Part shown: positions 26,836 through 60,130 of the stretch, piece after piece
Layout: each line of letters opens with the position of its first letter
How positions within the stretch are numbered: position 1 is the stretch's first letter
Source: Wickerhamiella versatilis
Lineage: Eukaryota
Reading direction: 5' to 3'
Assembly (NCBI GenBank): GCA_030867685.1
Contig: JAQOWU010000001.1
Coordinates: 992,001 to 1,056,000, forward strand
Length of the DNA: 64,000 bases
The notes under the pieces: generated by a model
Told to the model about the DNA's origin: nothing
Seen by the model: the letters and a program-made list of their open reading frames with translations, nothing else
Database searches by the model: none
Program-made: the position numbers and the translations under genes

Positions 26836-27861
26836 ATGGTAGAATTGGATTGCCTAGATATCCCCTTTGGTCTTGATCTAAAGCTACATGAGAGGCCATT
26901 TTGGACTGTTGGCGACAATGTGCGTGGGAAGCTGACGCTTAGCTGCACAAAGGACATTAGGTTAAGCGAGCTTGCTCTATTCCTGGAATGCAGAGTCAAT
27001 ATTACAGCAGACCAGCAACGTAAGTTATTGAAGTTAAGGAAAAAGAAGTTACGGGAACGTGGTGTGATTTTTTCCCGTCGCCTTATTCTATTTCCCACGC
27101 CAGAAGTTTCAAATGAAGAGCACAAGCTGGTGAGGGGTAAACATTGCTTCTCAATTTCAATTGAGCTCAACGATATAGGGGGTTATCCACCATCAGTTGG
27201 CAACAGTGAGTGTGGAGTGGTTTGGGAGCTCCGTGTTAGAAGAAAGTGCCATAAGAATCATCATCCTTTGACTGTTTTGGAACGTCCTCTTAAGATATAC
27301 CCCCCACTGAAAAGGGTCGATTCAATGTTCAGTGACAGTACTATTCGTTTGAACGATACTTTTGCACCAGTTATTGATACTGCCAAAGCTAGACAAATTC
27401 GAATGACAACCGAGAAGGAATTCGATATCAGTGGATCACTTTCGAGAACCCATAGTATGCTTTATGATACTCCAGTAGTTAGTAAAGTTAAGGTGACGAT
27501 GAATGCCAGCTTTACTGACATCCTTACGAAGCCCCCACGTATCGAACTCTACTTCTCCGAGCCTGGTCTTGTTCAAGTAACCATCGCCAAGATATGTTTG
27601 GAGACCATTGGTACTTTACAATCTCGTCACGGCAAAGTATTGCACAATTTACCGAACCAGCCGCTAGTTTCTTTCGATCCAATAAGCGTGGATGAAACAA
27701 TAGAGTTGCTGCCTCAAGGATATCTCAAAAAGGTCACACCGACATTCGCTGGTCAAGGCATGAAGATTCAACACTACTTAGTTGTGGAATGCTGGGGTTT
27801 TGTGAAGGGAACTAAAAAGCACCATCGGTTTGGTATTCGATATCCCGTAGTTGTCGGATAA
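26836..27861 (+). CDS. Arrestin-fold (alpha-arrestin-like) protein
   Basis: GDNVRGKLTL, LVRGKHCFSISIEL, YPPS, VVWELRV and TPTF...IQHYLVV follow the arrestin N/C pattern. Confidence 0.65.
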   Translation: MVELDCLDIPFGLDLKLHERPFWTVGDNVRGKLTLSCTKDIRLSELALFLECRVNITADQQRKLLKLRKKKLRERGVIFSRRLILFPTPEVSNEEHKLVRGKHCFSISIELNDIGGYPPSVGNSECGVVWELRVRRKCHKNHHPLTVLERPLKIYPPLKRVDSMFSDSTIRLNDTFAPVIDTAKARQIRMTTEKEFDISGSLSRTHSMLYDTPVVSKVKVTMNASFTDILTKPPRIELYFSEPGLVQVTIAKICLETIGTLQSRHGKVLHNLPNQPLVSFDPISVDETIELLPQGYLKKVTPTFAGQGMKIQHYLVVECWGFVKGTKKHHRFGIRYPVVVG

Positions 27862-28605
27862 GTTCAGCTTCTGGTTTACGAGTTATACCCTTGATTTTTT
27901 TATTATTACACAGACCACGATCTATAGCCGGTTACTACTAGGTTTTTTGCTGTGTCATTTTTGCATGAGTTTTTGTCACGCGTCATTCTCTCAACTACAT
28001 ACATTATTCATATAAATAAACTGTATTTATCTTGCAAAAGTAGGGCCTAGACAGGCAAGTCTACTACAGTGGATATTTGTACTTCAATTAGTTCATCCTG
28101 TGTCTCTTTTGTATTTTTTTAAGTTTTAGCGTTGTTATGCAGTGTTTTTAAAAAGATAATTTAAGCATATTCGCCTTCATAACTTTCGAGCCCGCTGTAG
28201 ACGGCGACGTTTACTCCCTCGTCGCATTTCTCACGGGGGTAAGGTAGAGCGGAAGAGGAAGGAATTTCGCAATACAATGCGTACACGGTCTATCTCGCCG
28301 TATTCGAAAAGGTTTAACACTAATCACGTCTAACTAGGAGGAACTTTTCTCTAGCTTACACTACATAATTTCCAGTGATAAAAATCTAATTTTGATGCCA
28401 TTAATTGAGCCGCTATCTTTATCTAGCAGTGGGAAGTTCGGGATGCACGTAATCCCCTGTATCGATAAGATATTTGTCAGAGCGATATTGTCAGGGTAAG
28501 GTCTTTTTCACCGGGGAACACGATCCCGGAGACCGTGCTAGGGGCTTATACAACACTACTTATAAACGATAGTTTCGCTCGACTTTTTCAAACCCTGATC
28601 GAAGA

Positions 28606-49162: not shown

Positions 49163-50718
49163 CTATTCACCAAGGACTGAATTCACGTCGTACCCCTCGT
49201 CAGAAAGCAGATTTCGAAATTTAGCGTCCTGCTCCGCTGCTGATTGCTGGGTTAATTCTGGGAGGAGCAGTGAGATTACCGCTGAAAATAAGCAAAGTGA
49301 GGATGAGATGTAAAACAAAACTGAAATGCCCGTGTCACTGTCGACACCTCCGTATCGTCTAGCGATAGCTGGAAATGTATAGGATCCCGCCAAAGCTCCT
49401 GCCTTGCCCATAGCAGCAGCAAAGCCATAGCCACGGCCCCTGATTGGAGTAGGGACTGCCTTAGAGGCAATTAAAATAGTGTTGTCACCTGGTCCAGCCT
49501 CACCGAGTGCCGTAAAAATACCATAAACAACCACAAATGCACCTACGCTACTTCGTAGGCTGGGAAAGTATACCGCAGTTATAAATCCAATAATTCCCTG
49601 AAGGACTAAGCAGATCGTCAGCGTAAGTCGGGGTCCAAGCCAGTCTGCCGAGACCCCGCCAAGAAAAGTACCAGGTAGATAGAAAAAGTTGAATAAGATC
49701 GTCCAAGCAAAGGACTTGCGAATATCGGACTTACCATCGTCTGTTGTGGCAAGTGCACTGAGAATAAAAGGGTAATAAGCCCCCAGGAGTACGACAATGC
49801 ATCGTAAATGAACCATATCAGGGACACCAGGCCAATGGAGCCGCCCCAATGCTTGATCATCATACCATAGGGCTGCTTTACGCGACGCATAGAATTCGAT
49901 CGGAAATCGCGTGATTCTTGAAGCTTTACCCTCATCAACAGTAGAATGAAGGAGGGTACGGCACCGAGGCCTAATTGGAGTCGCCAAGCAGTTTGCATAC
50001 CGTGATCTGAACCTGCGGACGGAACACCACAGATGTACAACAATACCAATGCGACTATGCTTGATACAAAAAACCCAGTGTCCAAGGCGCTGCAAGTGGT
50101 CCAAATTACCCAGCGGTGGCGCGAACCAGCTTTGAATCGTGAGCTAGCCTCGGTGCACGCTGCTGAGCCACATGGGTATTCTCCGCCAATACCTACGCCT
50201 AAAAAGACACGCCACACTGATAGAGCTGCGAACATCCCTGCAGGATTCGTGGGCATGCCCAATCCCCATGATCCAGCGGCAAGAACAGAAAATAGTATTA
50301 GCATCAATGTGCACACAATTAGACCGGTCTTGCGGCCAATATGGTCAGACAGGAATCCAAATGTGAGCATCCCGACAATTGCTCCGGCATATCCAAGACC
50401 ACCAATATTTGACATAGCTACGTTTTTATCAAACGAAGAATCCCCATAGATAGTGGACAAAAACTGGGTCACAAAGCCTATACTATTGTTTAAGTACCCG
50501 TCGCTGAATAGCCCTGTTCCAGTTGCTATTACTTGCCAGTATCGTGAATGTTTCTCTTCCTCACCTTGGTTCTCGTAGTCATCCAAAGTCGAACTTGTGA
50601 TAATTTCATTGTGCTTCTCAATTGAGCTGGAATCGGCGGCATATTCCTTAATAGAGGACGTACCCATCCAGCTTGGAGGGTGTGCCTCTCTACGTAGCAT
50701 TTCAAGATAACGTTGCAT
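49163..50718 (-). pseudogene. GIT1/PHO84-family MFS (glycerophosphodiester/phosphate) transporter with a 1-nt frameshift at 49780-49784
   Basis: The N-terminal half (GLFSDGYLNN, SDHIGRK, GIGGEYP) and C-terminal half (FYLPGT, GEAGPGDN, PTPIRG, AAMGKAG) are in different frames. One extra G in the G5 run joins them as YSWG-AYYPF. This could be a homopolymer sequencing error. Confidence 0.85.
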
Positions 50719-50799
50719 ATCTCCTTATTTCGAAAAGCTATGCTAAATGGATTTTAGATCCACCAATTTATTATACCTTTTCTGCACGCATTTCTCTTC

Positions 50800-50871
50800 C
50801 CACGTGCTGCTGACATTATAAGTTCTACTTATACCTCATTATTACCTGGGTGTCAATCAATAAGCACGTGG
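50800..50871. promoter_or_regulatory. Two inverted Pho4-type boxes (AGCACGTGG)
   Basis: CCACGTGCT at 50800-50808 and AGCACGTGG at 50863-50871, in the divergent transporter/lysR promoter. Confidence 0.7.
50817..50833. promoter_or_regulatory. Candidate LysR operator, copy 1
   Basis: TATAAG-TTCTA-CTTATA: perfect 6-bp arms around a T-N11-A core. Confidence 0.65.
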
Positions 50872-50979
50872 TTACAGTGTCACGCAGGGATACATTTGAA
50901 ATTGATTACGTACTTCTTGTCATATTCCCCTACCCTTTTGGCAAGTCGCTCTAATCAGTCGTGCTGTCTCTATGTATGA

Positions 50980-51897
50980 ATGGGAGTTTCTCACACACAA
51001 CTTAAAGCATTCCATAGTGTTGCTTTGACAAAGTCATTTACTCGTGCAGCCCATTCACTCGGGATGTCGCAGCCTGCTGTCTCTGAACAGGTCCGCAAGA
51101 TGGAGGAACAATACGCTGTGCAGCTCTTCACACGATCCCATCGTACCATTTCTCTAACTCGAAAAGGCGAACAGCTTTTCCAACTAACTAGTAAGCTATT
51201 CTCAATGGAAGCTGATATCCAAGAATTATTGCAAGCAGGTGACTCTAAAAAATCTTTGACACTGGCTGTCGACTCCCCACGACATCTATCCGCATTTCTC
51301 GCTCTTTTTTGTCAGCTCTATCCCACAATTGAAGTTTCCTTGATTACAGGAAACTCTGAACAGAATCTGACTCGTCTTCTGTCCAGTGAAGCAGATGTTG
51401 CTGTGGTGGGTCGCAATCTTGAGACATCCAATCAGCAGAATCCCCAAATTGAGTCAATAGTCTTGAATGTTGCACCGATACTTTTGATGTGTGGAAGAAG
51501 TCACCCTTGGAGTCAACGAGTGAATGCCTCAAAAGCGGTAAGTATTAGAGAGCTTCGGGGTCAGACACTAGTTATGCGTGAGCGCGGATCGGCCACCCGA
51601 AAGCTTGTTGAGAATACCCTAGAAGCCCATAATATCGATGTTAGGTCAGTCATTGAGACCACTGGGCGTGAAGCTGACAATGACCTAGTGGCAGATGACC
51701 TAGGGGTTGGGTTTGTGTCTGCTGCTGAAAGTTATAGCGATATACGTATTGTGCTACTACAGTTGTATGATGCAGAAATAATTATGTATGAACGTCTAGT
51801 TTGGTTGAAGGAGAATACTAACAGCTGTACTGATTTGTTCGTGCAGCTAATTCAGGATGAGCGTTCCACATTATATTCTGATGGTTGGGTTTCTTAA
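50980..51897 (+). CDS. Bacterial LysR-type transcriptional regulator, AEP-catabolism-associated type
   Basis: Winged HTH (QLKAFHSVA..SFTRAAHSLGMSQPAVSEQVRKME) and substrate-binding domain (LAVDSP, TGNS, MRERGSATR, LGVGFVS). The N-terminus resembles the Pseudomonas LysR found beside phnWX, from memory. Confidence 0.93.
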   Translation: MGVSHTQLKAFHSVALTKSFTRAAHSLGMSQPAVSEQVRKMEEQYAVQLFTRSHRTISLTRKGEQLFQLTSKLFSMEADIQELLQAGDSKKSLTLAVDSPRHLSAFLALFCQLYPTIEVSLITGNSEQNLTRLLSSEADVAVVGRNLETSNQQNPQIESIVLNVAPILLMCGRSHPWSQRVNASKAVSIRELRGQTLVMRERGSATRKLVENTLEAHNIDVRSVIETTGREADNDLVADDLGVGFVSAAESYSDIRIVLLQLYDAEIIMYERLVWLKENTNSCTDLFVQLIQDERSTLYSDGWVS

Positions 51898-51912
51898 TTC
51901 AATTACTCACTA

Positions 51913-52718
51913 TTAACATAGTCCCTCAGGTGATTGACCTGCTGCCAGGCACTCATTTATTTCTTCAATAATATTCGGCAGTTCTGCTACGGTGTTAACG
52001 TAGAAATGGGGACGTGAAGACTTAAGGTGCTTCTTCACGTGTAAACAGGCCCGATTCTGCTGCTCCTTATCAAGAGCATCCCACTGACTTAGTGTCATTC
52101 CCATATTGTTACTGAACCCGAGAACTGCTACTGTCCACATTCCGGCATGTCTGCCCTCAAGAATACCAGGTGCAGTGTCATCCACTTTGACACAAGCGGA
52201 GACGTCCTCAACGTTAAGCTTAATGACGTTGAGTAATGCTTGCGCTGGCCATGGTCGTCCACGTGGTACATCATCACTTGCGACCCAGTAGTCTGGTTTA
52301 TATCCAGCTGCCGCTGATAAGTTGACCACGCGCTCCATTGCGGCTCGAGGGTATCCTGAGCATGTTCCAATTTTTATGTTGTGGGACTTTAACCAAGAAA
52401 CTGTCTCCAGAGTTCCGGGTATTAATTTTGAGTAGTCTGCTATGGTCTCGATCTGTAAAGGCAAGAACCGACTGTATACTGAGAGCCAAATTTCTTCTCC
52501 CACCTTTCTCTGATGGTGTCATCGGCTAGAAGAGCCCGAATATGATCAATTTTAGCCATACCCATAGGTCCGCGTGCTTCCACGAGGGAAATCTCAATTC
52601 CGACAGCTGCAAAAGCATCCACAAACACTTGTGTGGGGGCAAAACAACCAAAATCTATCGTACTACCAGCCCAATCAAAAATTACGGCCTCTAAAGCCTT
52701 TGTTTTAATGTATTTCAT
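51913..52718 (-). pseudogene. phnX: Phosphonoacetaldehyde hydrolase (phosphonatase), frameshifted near 52485
   Basis: 5' part from ATG 52718: IFDWAGSTIDFGCFAP and EARGPMGMAK (Schiff-base Lys). 3' part, in another frame: RFLPLQI, CSGYP, GRPWPAQAL and VKVDDTAPGILEGRHAGMWTV. Confidence 0.93.
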
Positions 52719-52774
52719 TATGTGCACTAATCTAGCTATGATATATATGGGTATATATATGCATCTGAGCTTAC

Positions 52775-52791
52775 TATAGGCTGAACTTATA
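52775..52791. promoter_or_regulatory. Candidate LysR operator, copy 2
   Basis: TATAGG-CTGAA-CTTATA. Confidence 0.7.
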
Positions 52792-52823
52792 CGTATGCAA
52801 GTAACCTCGCGTTCATCTGTAAG

Positions 52824-52840
52824 CATAAGCTCAGCCTATA
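52824..52840. promoter_or_regulatory. Candidate LysR operator, copy 3 (inverted relative to copy 2)
   Basis: CATAAG-CTCAG-CCTATA. Its reverse complement, TATAGGCTGAGCTTATG, matches copy 2 at 15/17 positions. Confidence 0.7.
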
Positions 52841-52930
52841 CTAGTTGATAATCCCCTTACCCAGTATTTTTAAAAGATACTGAACAATCCTAATCTTATT
52901 TAACTGCGATAAATCAGGAAAGAGGTCTTT

Positions 52931-54025
52931 ATGACGATTCTTCTAACTCCCGGCCCGCTCACGACCTCCCGGCAAACGCGAGATGCCATGATGGTCGATT
53001 GGGGTTCAAGAGATAGCGATTTCACAGGCATGTGCGCGACTATCTGTAAACAGCTGATCGACATTATCAATGGCGAGAAAACGCACGTATGCGTACCACT
53101 TCAAGGTAGTGGGACGTTTGCGGTCGAGGCTGCTTTGGGTACACTGGTTTCGCCCAAGGGCGATGCCATTCTAATCCTCAGTAACGGTGCTTATGGTAGG
53201 CGTATGAAACAGATATGTGACAAAATATGCCGCAAAAGTTTTATTATTGAATGGCCAGAAAGCGAAGTCACAGACCCGACAACTGTCGATAGCTATTTGA
53301 CGTCCCACCCTGAAGCGACCCATGTCGCTCTGGTACACTGTGAGACAAGCGTAGGTATCATGAATCCATTACATCAAATTGCGAAAGTGGTAGAAAAACA
53401 CAAAAAAAAGCTGATTGTTGATGCAATGAGCTCTCTGGGGGCTCTTCCGATAGACGTAACGGCTCACCCAGCAATTATTGCGGTAATAGCCGCTAGCGGA
53501 AAATGTCTCGAAGGAGTTCCAGGGATGGCATTTGTGCTCGTAAATAGGCTGAACCTGCTTAATTGTAAAGATAACGCTCATTCTATTGTACTCGATCTCT
53601 ACGATCAGTTTGTGGTAATGGAAAGAACTGGACAGTGGCGCTTCACCCCACCGACGCATGTCGTCGCTGCGTTGCATTCGGCCTTGTCTCAGTTCATTTC
53701 TGAAGGTGGTCAAAAAGCTAGGTTGGCTCGATACCAGCGCAACATGGATACTTTAAGCAGTGGGCTCGATTCTCTCGGCATCAAACGCTATTTGCGTAAT
53801 GAGAACCAAGCACCAATTATCATGACATGCTACACCCCAATTAGCAACACCTGGGACTTCAACAAGTTCTACAATCTTACTCGCTCCAAAGGCTTTGCCC
53901 TCTACCCTGGAAACCTGACGGCGGCCAGTACCTTCCGTGTTGGTTGTATTGGTGATGTTCAGCCTGAAGACTTGGAAGCCGCCGTCGATGCCATACGTGC
54001 TTCATTGAATGAATTGGGTATCTAG
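52931..54025 (+). CDS. phnW: 2-aminoethylphosphonate:pyruvate transaminase
   Basis: ILLTPGPLTTS, LQGSGTFAVEA, NGAYG, HCETS, DAMSS, SGKCLEGVPG (PLP Lys), QWRFTPPTHVV and FRVGCIG; adjacent to phnX. Confidence 0.96.
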   Translation: MTILLTPGPLTTSRQTRDAMMVDWGSRDSDFTGMCATICKQLIDIINGEKTHVCVPLQGSGTFAVEAALGTLVSPKGDAILILSNGAYGRRMKQICDKICRKSFIIEWPESEVTDPTTVDSYLTSHPEATHVALVHCETSVGIMNPLHQIAKVVEKHKKKLIVDAMSSLGALPIDVTAHPAIIAVIAASGKCLEGVPGMAFVLVNRLNLLNCKDNAHSIVLDLYDQFVVMERTGQWRFTPPTHVVAALHSALSQFISEGGQKARLARYQRNMDTLSSGLDSLGIKRYLRNENQAPIIMTCYTPISNTWDFNKFYNLTRSKGFALYPGNLTAASTFRVGCIGDVQPEDLEAAVDAIRASLNELGI

Positions 54026-54268
54026 AGTAACACAAGACAGCTCTATATTATATACAGGAGATTGCAATATATGCATATAAATTAATACAATATAATGCGA
54101 TCTGAAGCTAGAAAGGTGTGCTACAGTGCTGCTTGTACTCATATCTAATGTTTTATAGTAAGACAATTAAATTGTGGTACCGCTTAGCGTAAGCACGATA
54201 TAACCCTTGCCCAAATGGCGGAACTATTTAATGTATAAGTGGTTAGACTCTTTGTAGACCCAACACCA

Positions 54269-55246
54269 ATGCAGAAAAGCGATATGACGTCGATTACTAC
54301 AAAAGAAGACAATCAACCTCTGGAGCGAAGTCCAAGCGAAAAGCATTCAACTGAGATTGGAAGTCCAAACACGCTAACTATTTCTAGCAATTCCAGTTCA
54401 AACGAACAGGATATCAAGAATTTGGGGGATCCAATGAATGCACTCTCCCTTGCTGATAGCTCAGAAAATTCGGATGATGAAGATCCTGAAGAACTTGATA
54501 ATCTGGAGAAGTGGCATGAAGCGATGCTCCACCGTGCCGCGTGGAAAGAGTGGGTTCAAGAAATGTGGGAGGAAATTTTTGAGGAAGAGATATCGGAGGA
54601 TGAGGAAGAGTCATCGCACGTAGAAAGAGATTATGAAAACAGATCTCACGAAACTCCAGAGCCCAGGGGGCCATCAGCAGGTATTGCCGAATACGAGCGG
54701 GTACGCATGGCCGATGGAAGTACCAAAATGGTAAAGGACTTAGTTAGGGGCGACTTTGTCATGGGTCCCCATGGTAATCCTGTGGAGGTTAAAGATGTGA
54801 AAAGAGGATATAGTCAGCTCTACGAAGTATCTGTTCCAAATGATAATGGAATCGGAAGGCGAAAGGTAGCAGTCGGTGCTAGACAGCCATTTAAGCTATC
54901 AATTGAGCAGTGCAATTTACGACCCGTTCATGTTTTGGCTCAAGGAAACAACAAGCCCCGGTACGAGGTGACTTACCGTAGCCTTACTCGAGAAAGAGTA
55001 GAGGCCGGGAAAGGTGATTTTCGCCAGGTCACAAAGGTGCATGAGACTACTATATTTGAGTCATATGACTCTAAAACTTCTCATATACTGGCGTCTACCC
55101 CAGAAGAGGCGAAATATCGGCTATGTAAAAAGCTTTATGCCAATCTACCCAGAGATACTAATGGTAAGATATGTACCAGACTTCAGTGGATAGCTGAGGC
55201 ACGTGACTTAAATCTTCATAAACCCCCTTGCATGATCCACATGTAG
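54269..55246 (+). CDS. Truncated free-standing VDE/HO-like intein (Hint) domain protein with an acidic N-terminus
   Basis: GIAEYERVRMADGSTKMVKDLVRGDFVMGPHGNPVEV...RGYSQLYEV resembles the N-terminus of the VMA1 intein and HO. LQWIAEARDL resembles VDE FEWTIEARDL. The ORF stops before any LAGLIDADG motif. Confidence 0.78.
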   Translation: MQKSDMTSITTKEDNQPLERSPSEKHSTEIGSPNTLTISSNSSSNEQDIKNLGDPMNALSLADSSENSDDEDPEELDNLEKWHEAMLHRAAWKEWVQEMWEEIFEEEISEDEEESSHVERDYENRSHETPEPRGPSAGIAEYERVRMADGSTKMVKDLVRGDFVMGPHGNPVEVKDVKRGYSQLYEVSVPNDNGIGRRKVAVGARQPFKLSIEQCNLRPVHVLAQGNNKPRYEVTYRSLTRERVEAGKGDFRQVTKVHETTIFESYDSKTSHILASTPEEAKYRLCKKLYANLPRDTNGKICTRLQWIAEARDLNLHKPPCMIHM

Positions 55247-59818: not shown

Positions 59819-60118
59819 AACAAATCACTTGCCACCTAGATGTATTCGCTCTGTTCTCCAAATATAATATAACTTATCTATTTGTCGCTGATAGCACGCT
59901 TATATCAGTAGGGGTAAGGGGGTTTCACTGACCGCAGGTCTCACTGCCCGACGAGCAGTGATTATTATATAACAAATTTCTAGATAGGCAAGTGCTGATA
60001 TTTATCGAAGGTGAAAATCACAAATAACATTCATAAATAAGTAAACCAGATAGTATTGAGAGTCTTAATGTCGCATTAGGTTCATAAGGCACGTGAATGG
60101 CGTTCATTAGATAATATA

Positions 60119-60130
60119 GGTCACGTGACC
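60119..60130. promoter_or_regulatory. Palindromic E-box GGTCACGTGACC (Cbf1/Tye7-type)
   Basis: 12-bp perfect palindrome in the divergent PTR2/amine oxidase promoter. Confidence 0.5.

Follow-up and report, generated by a model that had tools for sequence, protein, structure and literature searches.

Bacterial LysR operator sites beside two yeast phosphate-type boxes in one divergent promoter of a Wickerhamiella-type yeast suggest bacterial and yeast gene control working together

The window, by which we mean the whole 64-kb stretch of DNA analysed here, is a chromosome segment of a budding yeast of the Wickerhamiella type. It carries genes of fungal type, encoding a Pdr-type ABC transporter, a Zn2Cys6 factor, an aspartyl protease, PTR2 and a hybrid histidine kinase. 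A small cluster at 49163-54025 is composed of an MFS permease gene (minus strand), lysR (plus), phnX (minus) and phnW (plus), with a divergent promoter between the permease gene and lysR and a spacer between phnX and phnW (Table 1). Together, lysR, phnX and phnW are an old bacterial aminoethylphosphonate (AEP) cluster, of which lysR is the first gene.

Table 1. Genes, promoters and candidate regulatory elements of the cluster, in window coordinates.
Feature	Position	Strand	Remarks
GIT1-family (glycerophosphodiester-type) MFS permease gene, fungal	49163..50718	-	Pfam Sugar_tr/MFS_1 on both halves; 1-bp deletion after 49771
Divergent promoter of MFS gene and lysR, 261 bp	50719..50979	.	From MFS ATG at 50718 (minus strand) to lysR ATG at 50980
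lysR, intact, 305 aa, LysR type of bacterial AEP catabolism	50980..51897	+	Pfam, NCBIfam
phnX (phosphonoacetaldehyde hydrolase), broken	51913..52718	-	TIGR01422 in two pieces; 25-bp deletion after 52478
phnX/phnW spacer	52719-52930		
phnW (2-aminoethylphosphonate--pyruvate transaminase), intact	52931..54025	+	NF010006, TIGR02326
Box 1-like element TAAAATCCATTTA, T-N11-A, one mismatch from TAAAATCGATTTA	50744..50756	-	Ties for top PWM score; nhmmer E=2.9
E-box 1: CCACGTGCT on plus, AGCACGTGG on minus strand; GCACGTGGG with next base	50800..50808	-	
Box 2-like dyad ATAAGTTCTACTTAT	50818..50832	.	PWM 16.8, 4th-best distinct site in window; nhmmer E=15 (54-nt model)
E-box 2: AGCACGTGG; GCACGTGGT with next base	50863..50871	+	
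Box 2-like site ATAAGTTCAGCCTAT, phnX/phnW spacer	52776..52790	-	PWM 19.2, rank 2; nhmmer E=0.15 (52794-52775)
Box 2-like site ATAAGCTCAGCCTAT, phnX/phnW spacer	52825..52839	+	PWM 20.9, rank 1; nhmmer E=0.015 (52818-52840)

The gene order of the window is that of Wickerhamiella versatilis JCM 5958 in the supplement of PMC13376923, where Supplementary Data 6 and 7 give PTR2, a DAL81-like factor, phnW, phnX, LysR, the MFS gene and SLN1. In the tables of the same paper, phnW, phnX, LysR and an MFS gene of the same kind are consecutive in W. domercqiae JCM 9478; phnW, phnX and LysR are marked 'HGT Bacteria' there, and the MFS gene 'Native'. As the cluster is listed in this 2026 supplement, the gene transfer is already on record. 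The terms 'phosphon' and 'LysR' are absent from the main text of that paper. Our literature search returned no description of the promoter architecture and no source that brings together LysR and Wickerhamiella, or phosphonoacetaldehyde and Saccharomycotina; among the sources retrieved, those joining phnX, phnW, yeast and horizontal gene transfer were bacterial studies.

The product of phnW exceeds the equivalog cutoffs of NF010006 (494.9 bits vs 296) and of TIGR02326 (450.9 vs 400.8). Its relatives begin with matches at 62-63% identity, followed by a broad range of Proteobacteria at 53-57%. PhnX aligns to TIGR01422 at profile positions 2-71 (107.2 bits) and 79-251 (198.8 bits), the cutoff being 220; positions 72-78 are absent from the PhnX of this strain, owing to the 25-bp deletion. 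The true start of phnX is at 52718 and not at the longer open reading frame start, and the gene is split by a frameshift.

The convergent lysR and phnX genes have their stop codons 15 bp apart (51895-51915), so that their transcripts must overlap or terminate within each other. This tight packing, bacterial in style, has been retained in the yeast. At 50001-54000, in the transferred block, the G+C content is 0.447-0.465, compared with about 0.40 in the surrounding DNA, which fits an old transfer largely adapted to the composition of the host. Directly after phnW, at the edge of the block, a 335-aa open reading frame (54239-55246, plus strand) carries a Hom_end-associated Hint domain (E=1.2e-9).

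For the permease, the best named relative is a protein of Wickerhamiella sorbophila (48%), annotated as hypothetical only, and next come GIT1/glycerophosphoinositol permeases of many fungi. An intact relative of 525 aa, P0122, is 96% identical to it. By these homologies the permease is fungal, not bacterial, and belongs to the GIT1 family with its MFS fold. We considered the AAGGAG ahead of its ATG as a relic of a bacterial ribosome site and rejected it, since the N-terminus aligns with that of fungal relatives.

Both the permease gene and phnX are frameshifted in this strain. In the contigs of run X13, about 1% diverged from the window, an additional A follows 49771, which brings the permease back into frame as in P0122, and 25 additional bases follow 52478; these restore the phnX frame and, read by eye, fill profile positions 72-78. 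Both deletions are common to X9 (an isolate, depth 139, from which the window may itself derive) and X16. A further run, X19, spans neither break, and intact alleles are found in one of the three informative runs (X13; not X9 or X16). The breaks in the permease gene and in phnX are real, not assembly errors: the pathway is therefore dead in this strain, and the two-tier circuit discussed below cannot work in this genome. Judged by the restored frames, at least one other strain has the pathway intact. That one lineage lost both these genes of a single pathway fits a permease working alongside the phosphonate enzymes.

The LysR protein of the window, P0001, has HTH_1 and LysR_substrate domains above the Pfam cutoffs (74.7 bits vs 26.6 and 94.6 vs 28). 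Its best NCBIfam match is TIGR03339, phn_lysR, which leads by over 100 bits; with a score of 254.3 bits under a cutoff of 341.1, we term the protein a diverged relative and not a certified member. Its identity to the nearest LysR proteins of bacteria is about 45%. Two related proteins, P0002 (95% identity) and P0003 (65%; putatively of yeast origin), share with P0001 three indels and a C-terminal extension, all absent from the eight bacterial proteins aligned. A metagenome scan with the alignment of P0001-P0003 returned 22 loci, of which 19 were bacterial-type with 40-43% identity, the other 3 being weak or partial.

Across 8 bacterial orthologs 88 residues are invariant, and P0001 retains 71 of them. 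P0001 agrees with P0003 at 73 of these 88 bacterial-invariant columns, vs 116 of the 194 variable ones (Fisher P=1e-4). Read from the alignment, this conservation of residues is the pattern of purifying selection. Acidic and aromatic residues abound in the C-terminal extension (about 290-305 in P0001, window 51847-51894); it might act as a small activation region, an interface to the yeast machinery.

Of the 99 loci with an orthologous LysR that served as bacterial reference, 80 came from genomes and 19 from metagenomes. A conserved operator stands upstream of lysR in 97 of them: Box 1 (TAAAATCGATTTA) comes first and is separated by a short spacer from Box 2 (ATAAGYTNAGCTTRT). A PWM for Box 2, built from 36 unique bacterial sequences, and an nhmmer model of the 54-nt bacterial operator were both run over the 64-kb window. 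The original prediction had placed a LysR-like dyad between two E-boxes of the divergent promoter. This dyad, ATAAGTTCTACTTAT, proves to be a perfect 6+3+6 palindrome of the T-N11-A form that matches the bacterial AEP-LysR operator.

Three of the four best distinct Box 2 PWM sites of the window fall inside the two cluster promoters, which together measure 473 bp, and its two best nhmmer operator matches are both located in the phnX/phnW spacer. Box 1, with at most one mismatch allowed, has a single match in 64 kb (50744-50756), vs 0.29 expected. The pattern ATAAGYTNNNCYTAT, tuned after the sites were known, has three matches, all in the two cluster promoters, vs 0.11 expected (3 reached in 0 of 100 shuffles). 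On both elements of the MFS/lysR promoter the full-length operator model is weak (E=2.9 and 15), their support coming from the shorter PWMs and the patterns. The boxes are no longer spaced as in bacteria: Box 1 lies 75 bp from Box 2 and the Box 2 pair of the phnX/phnW spacer is 49 bp apart, vs about 27 bp centre-to-centre in bacteria. By its match to the bacterial operator, the dyad is a true LysR site, and the copies between phnX and phnW are better ones.

Elsewhere in the window, a Box 2-like sequence, ATAAGTTCAGCTTCT, lies at 27858-27872, at the 3' end of an arrestin-like open reading frame (PWM 17.1, rank 3; nhmmer E=0.64). It is probably due to chance.

The boxes could be explained without a working regulator: LysR would have lost its regulatory role, the boxes would be leftovers of the transfer or TATA-like, AT-rich elements, and host factors alone would run the cluster. 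The Box 2 half-site TATAAG indeed resembles the TATA element of AT-rich yeast promoter DNA. The RBS-ABS spacing of the bacterial operator is lost, LysR scores under the TIGR03339 cutoff, and no route is known by which a bacterial activator could recruit the yeast transcription machinery. However, while the coding sequence has drifted to about 45% identity with the nearest LysR proteins of bacteria, agreement with the bacterial consensus persists in the non-coding boxes of 15 nt, and the cluster promoters hold three of the four best sites of the window. The LysR frame is intact, and the residues preferentially kept are those invariant in bacteria, the helix-turn-helix included.

Expression values for two species, in both of which lysR is listed as transcribed, are given in the tables of PMC13376923, which cover YPD and YNB media only, both phosphate-replete. 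In W. domercqiae, LysR reaches 22-65 TPM, phnW and phnX remain under 2 TPM and the MFS gene under 1 TPM; in W. versatilis, all four genes are under 10 TPM. The low values of W. versatilis may reflect the low-expression chromosome-end domains described in the same paper, not PHO control. The near silence of phnW and phnX in both species, in the media tested, would suit a LysR without function. It is, however, also what an inducer-dependent regulator predicts when AEP is not supplied, and lysR itself is transcribed in W. domercqiae. Altogether, we consider it unlikely that LysR has ceased to regulate; that it still acts on its boxes in yeast appears, from protein and boxes alike, somewhat better than an even bet.

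The second type of element in the divergent promoter is the E-box. Two inverted copies of AGCACGTGG had been claimed for this promoter, and both were found in it, one on each strand (Table 1). They are the 9-nt arms, 100% complementary and 54 nt apart, of an inverted repeat, and their CACGTG cores are at 50801 and 50865. The exact 9-mer AGCACGTGG occurs in the 64-kb window at these sites only. A motif search also bore out that the phnX/phnW intergenic region is without CACGTG; the phnX coding sequence holds two (52036, 52260).

The core motif alone is not enriched in the window: CACGTG occurs 11 times vs 7.21 expected, a count within the shuffle range (11 reached in 10 of 100 shuffles). The 8-mer GCACGTGG has 2 copies in 64 kb, both in the E-boxes, vs 0.61 expected, and at least 2 are reached in 11 of 100 shuffles. 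These counts are compatible with a functionless chance pair, and the pair was moreover chosen by eye from many windows. A comparison among strains is uninformative on constraint, the X13 and X19 contigs being too similar: in the 261-bp promoter there are 0 variants in X13 (full cover) and X19 (cover to 50961), where about 2 would be expected, which is not significant. What stands against chance is that the sole two copies of GCACGTGG occur within 64 bp of each other in one promoter, 85-150 bp from the start codon of a GIT1-family gene, a typical distance for an upstream activating site; by our own post hoc estimate, the chance of such closeness is roughly 2e-4 per window. Only the closeness and placement of the E-boxes are unusual, and this judgement too was made post hoc. 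Weighing both sides, we hold a mere chance pair to be quite improbable.

Two further regularities of the promoter were noticed post hoc. A CACGCA is found 16 bp outside each E-box core (50785, 50881). The centres of the Box 1-like element, E-box 1, Box 2 and E-box 2 are spaced by 53.5, 21.5 and 42.5 bp, near whole helical turns (50744-50886).

The nature of the factor that would bind the E-boxes is suggested by the bases next to their cores. The contexts are ccCACGTGct and agCACGTGgt, with G/C flanks and no T beside the core. According to PMC3643608, Cbf1 affinity is highest, and phosphate induction absent, when a T stands beside the CACGTG core, and VTC4 has cgCACGTGgc as its strong Pho4 site; the PDF supplement of that paper contains reporter sequences and no flank-affinity table. 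The original prediction of Pho4 sites is plausible in that the flanks are of the Pho4 and not the Cbf1 type and that GCACGTGG is shared with the strong VTC4 site, under flank rules that derive from S. cerevisiae proteins and may not hold in a Wickerhamiella-type yeast. The prediction had also invoked GIT1 as a PHO-regulated gene. This agrees with PMC5620639, where GIT1-family genes are described as induced by Pho4 in S. cerevisiae, C. glabrata, C. albicans and C. neoformans; as relatives of the permease are Pho4 targets across fungi, the E-boxes would most simply belong to the permease gene.

A second pair of CACGTG motifs, at 60090 and 60122 (60090-60127), 32 bp apart, lies in the divergent promoter of PTR2 and a flavin amine oxidase gene. 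Its flanks contain T and are of the Cbf1 type (ggCACGTGaa, gtCACGTGac), so that this genome has boxes of either flavour.

CACGTG is common to several yeast bHLH factors (PMC3643608), and the E-boxes, although real, could be used by another of them, such as Cbf1 or a Tye7-like protein, setting a basal or chromatin state instead of phosphate control. The pair in the PTR2/amine oxidase promoter speaks for such a general promoter use of the motif, as does the expression of lysR in replete medium in W. domercqiae. Neither E-box, however, has the T flank favoured by Cbf1, the 8-mer equals the one in the VTC4 Pho4 site, and the Pho4 dependence of GIT1-family genes extends to four fungi. Use of the E-boxes by a different bHLH factor therefore seems improbable to us.

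We propose that the 261-bp stretch is a composite two-way promoter, with the native GIT1-family permease gene on one side and the bacterial lysR on the other. The yeast LysR would still bind its operator boxes, and these would hence have been kept by selection; it would sense AEP and switch phnX, phnW and perhaps the permease gene. The GCACGTGG E-boxes that flank Box 2 would most likely be sites of the PHO regulon, bound by Pho4. In the most economical reading they belong to the GIT1-family gene, and lysR would be affected only via the shared promoter. To the composite promoter as a whole, a LysR operator combined with Pho4 E-boxes, we give a probability of roughly 0.45. That the E-boxes confer control by phosphate starvation on the permease gene is possible, at odds a little short of even.

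The original prediction went further, to a two-tier circuit in which phosphate starvation would induce the transporter and lysR, and LysR with its substrate would then control phnW and phnX. With lysR at 22-65 TPM in replete media and the MFS gene silent, lysR of W. domercqiae needs no phosphate starvation, and this expression does not fit a Pho4-dependent induction of lysR. We regard the full circuit as doubtful. It is just as doubtful that LysR and its operator boxes were kept as a working nuclear transcription factor wired in series with the host Pho4. The position of bacterial LysR sites beside two yeast phosphate-type boxes nevertheless suggests that bacterial and yeast gene control work together here.

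The promoter resembles those of the PHO regulon in S. cerevisiae and its relatives (VTC4, PHO84 and GIT1) in its CACGTG cores with G/C flanks, in the GCACGTGG found also in VTC4, and in placing a pair of sites, no more than about 65 bp apart, ahead of a GIT1-family permease gene. Unlike them, it also drives a lysR of bacterial type and bears LysR operator boxes.

With the AEP LysR of Pseudomonas and its relatives, the yeast system shares a regulator of about 45% identity and boxes that match Box 1 and Box 2. In two of the bacterial loci, L003 and L039, this LysR is divergent from an operon with an MFS transporter of the GlpT/UhpC/PgtP type (organophosphate-type); the operon of L003 also holds phnW, that of L039 a putative aminophosphonate oxidoreductase. 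The yeast, in contrast, has an unrelated, fungal GIT1-type permease opposite lysR. Its boxes are spread over two yeast-sized promoters with changed spacing; phnX and phnW are divergent single genes with boxes of their own, and host-type E-boxes stand beside the LysR box.

In engineered yeast promoters that use LexA, TetR or LacI, the operator of a bacterial DNA-binding protein is placed beside native upstream elements. Those constructs are man-made, whereas the promoter described here would be a natural case, with block or activation as the candidate outcomes. The expectation for bacterial genes entering eukaryotes is that their own regulation is lost and new host promoters are needed. For the enterobactin operon of Wickerhamiella/Starmerella, the available accounts (10.1101/399394, PMC10690196) describe a bacterial cluster that was kept and joined by a native fungal gene in the same clade. 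It consists of biosynthetic genes; here, by contrast, a transcription factor of bacterial origin appears to have been retained too, along with its DNA sites.

What makes this locus of interest is that host-type phosphate boxes are found together with a regulator gene and the DNA sites of that regulator, and that lysR stands beside the same fungal permease gene in two yeast species. Strains with intact and with broken alleles provide a natural comparison. If LysR works, it would be, as far as the literature was searched, the first natural pair of a bacterial transcription factor and its operator acting in a eukaryote, and would offer a stepwise view of how a transferred pathway becomes tied to the nutrient sensing of its host. 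If it is wired with Pho4, the promoter would be a natural hybrid of the kind that synthetic biologists build.
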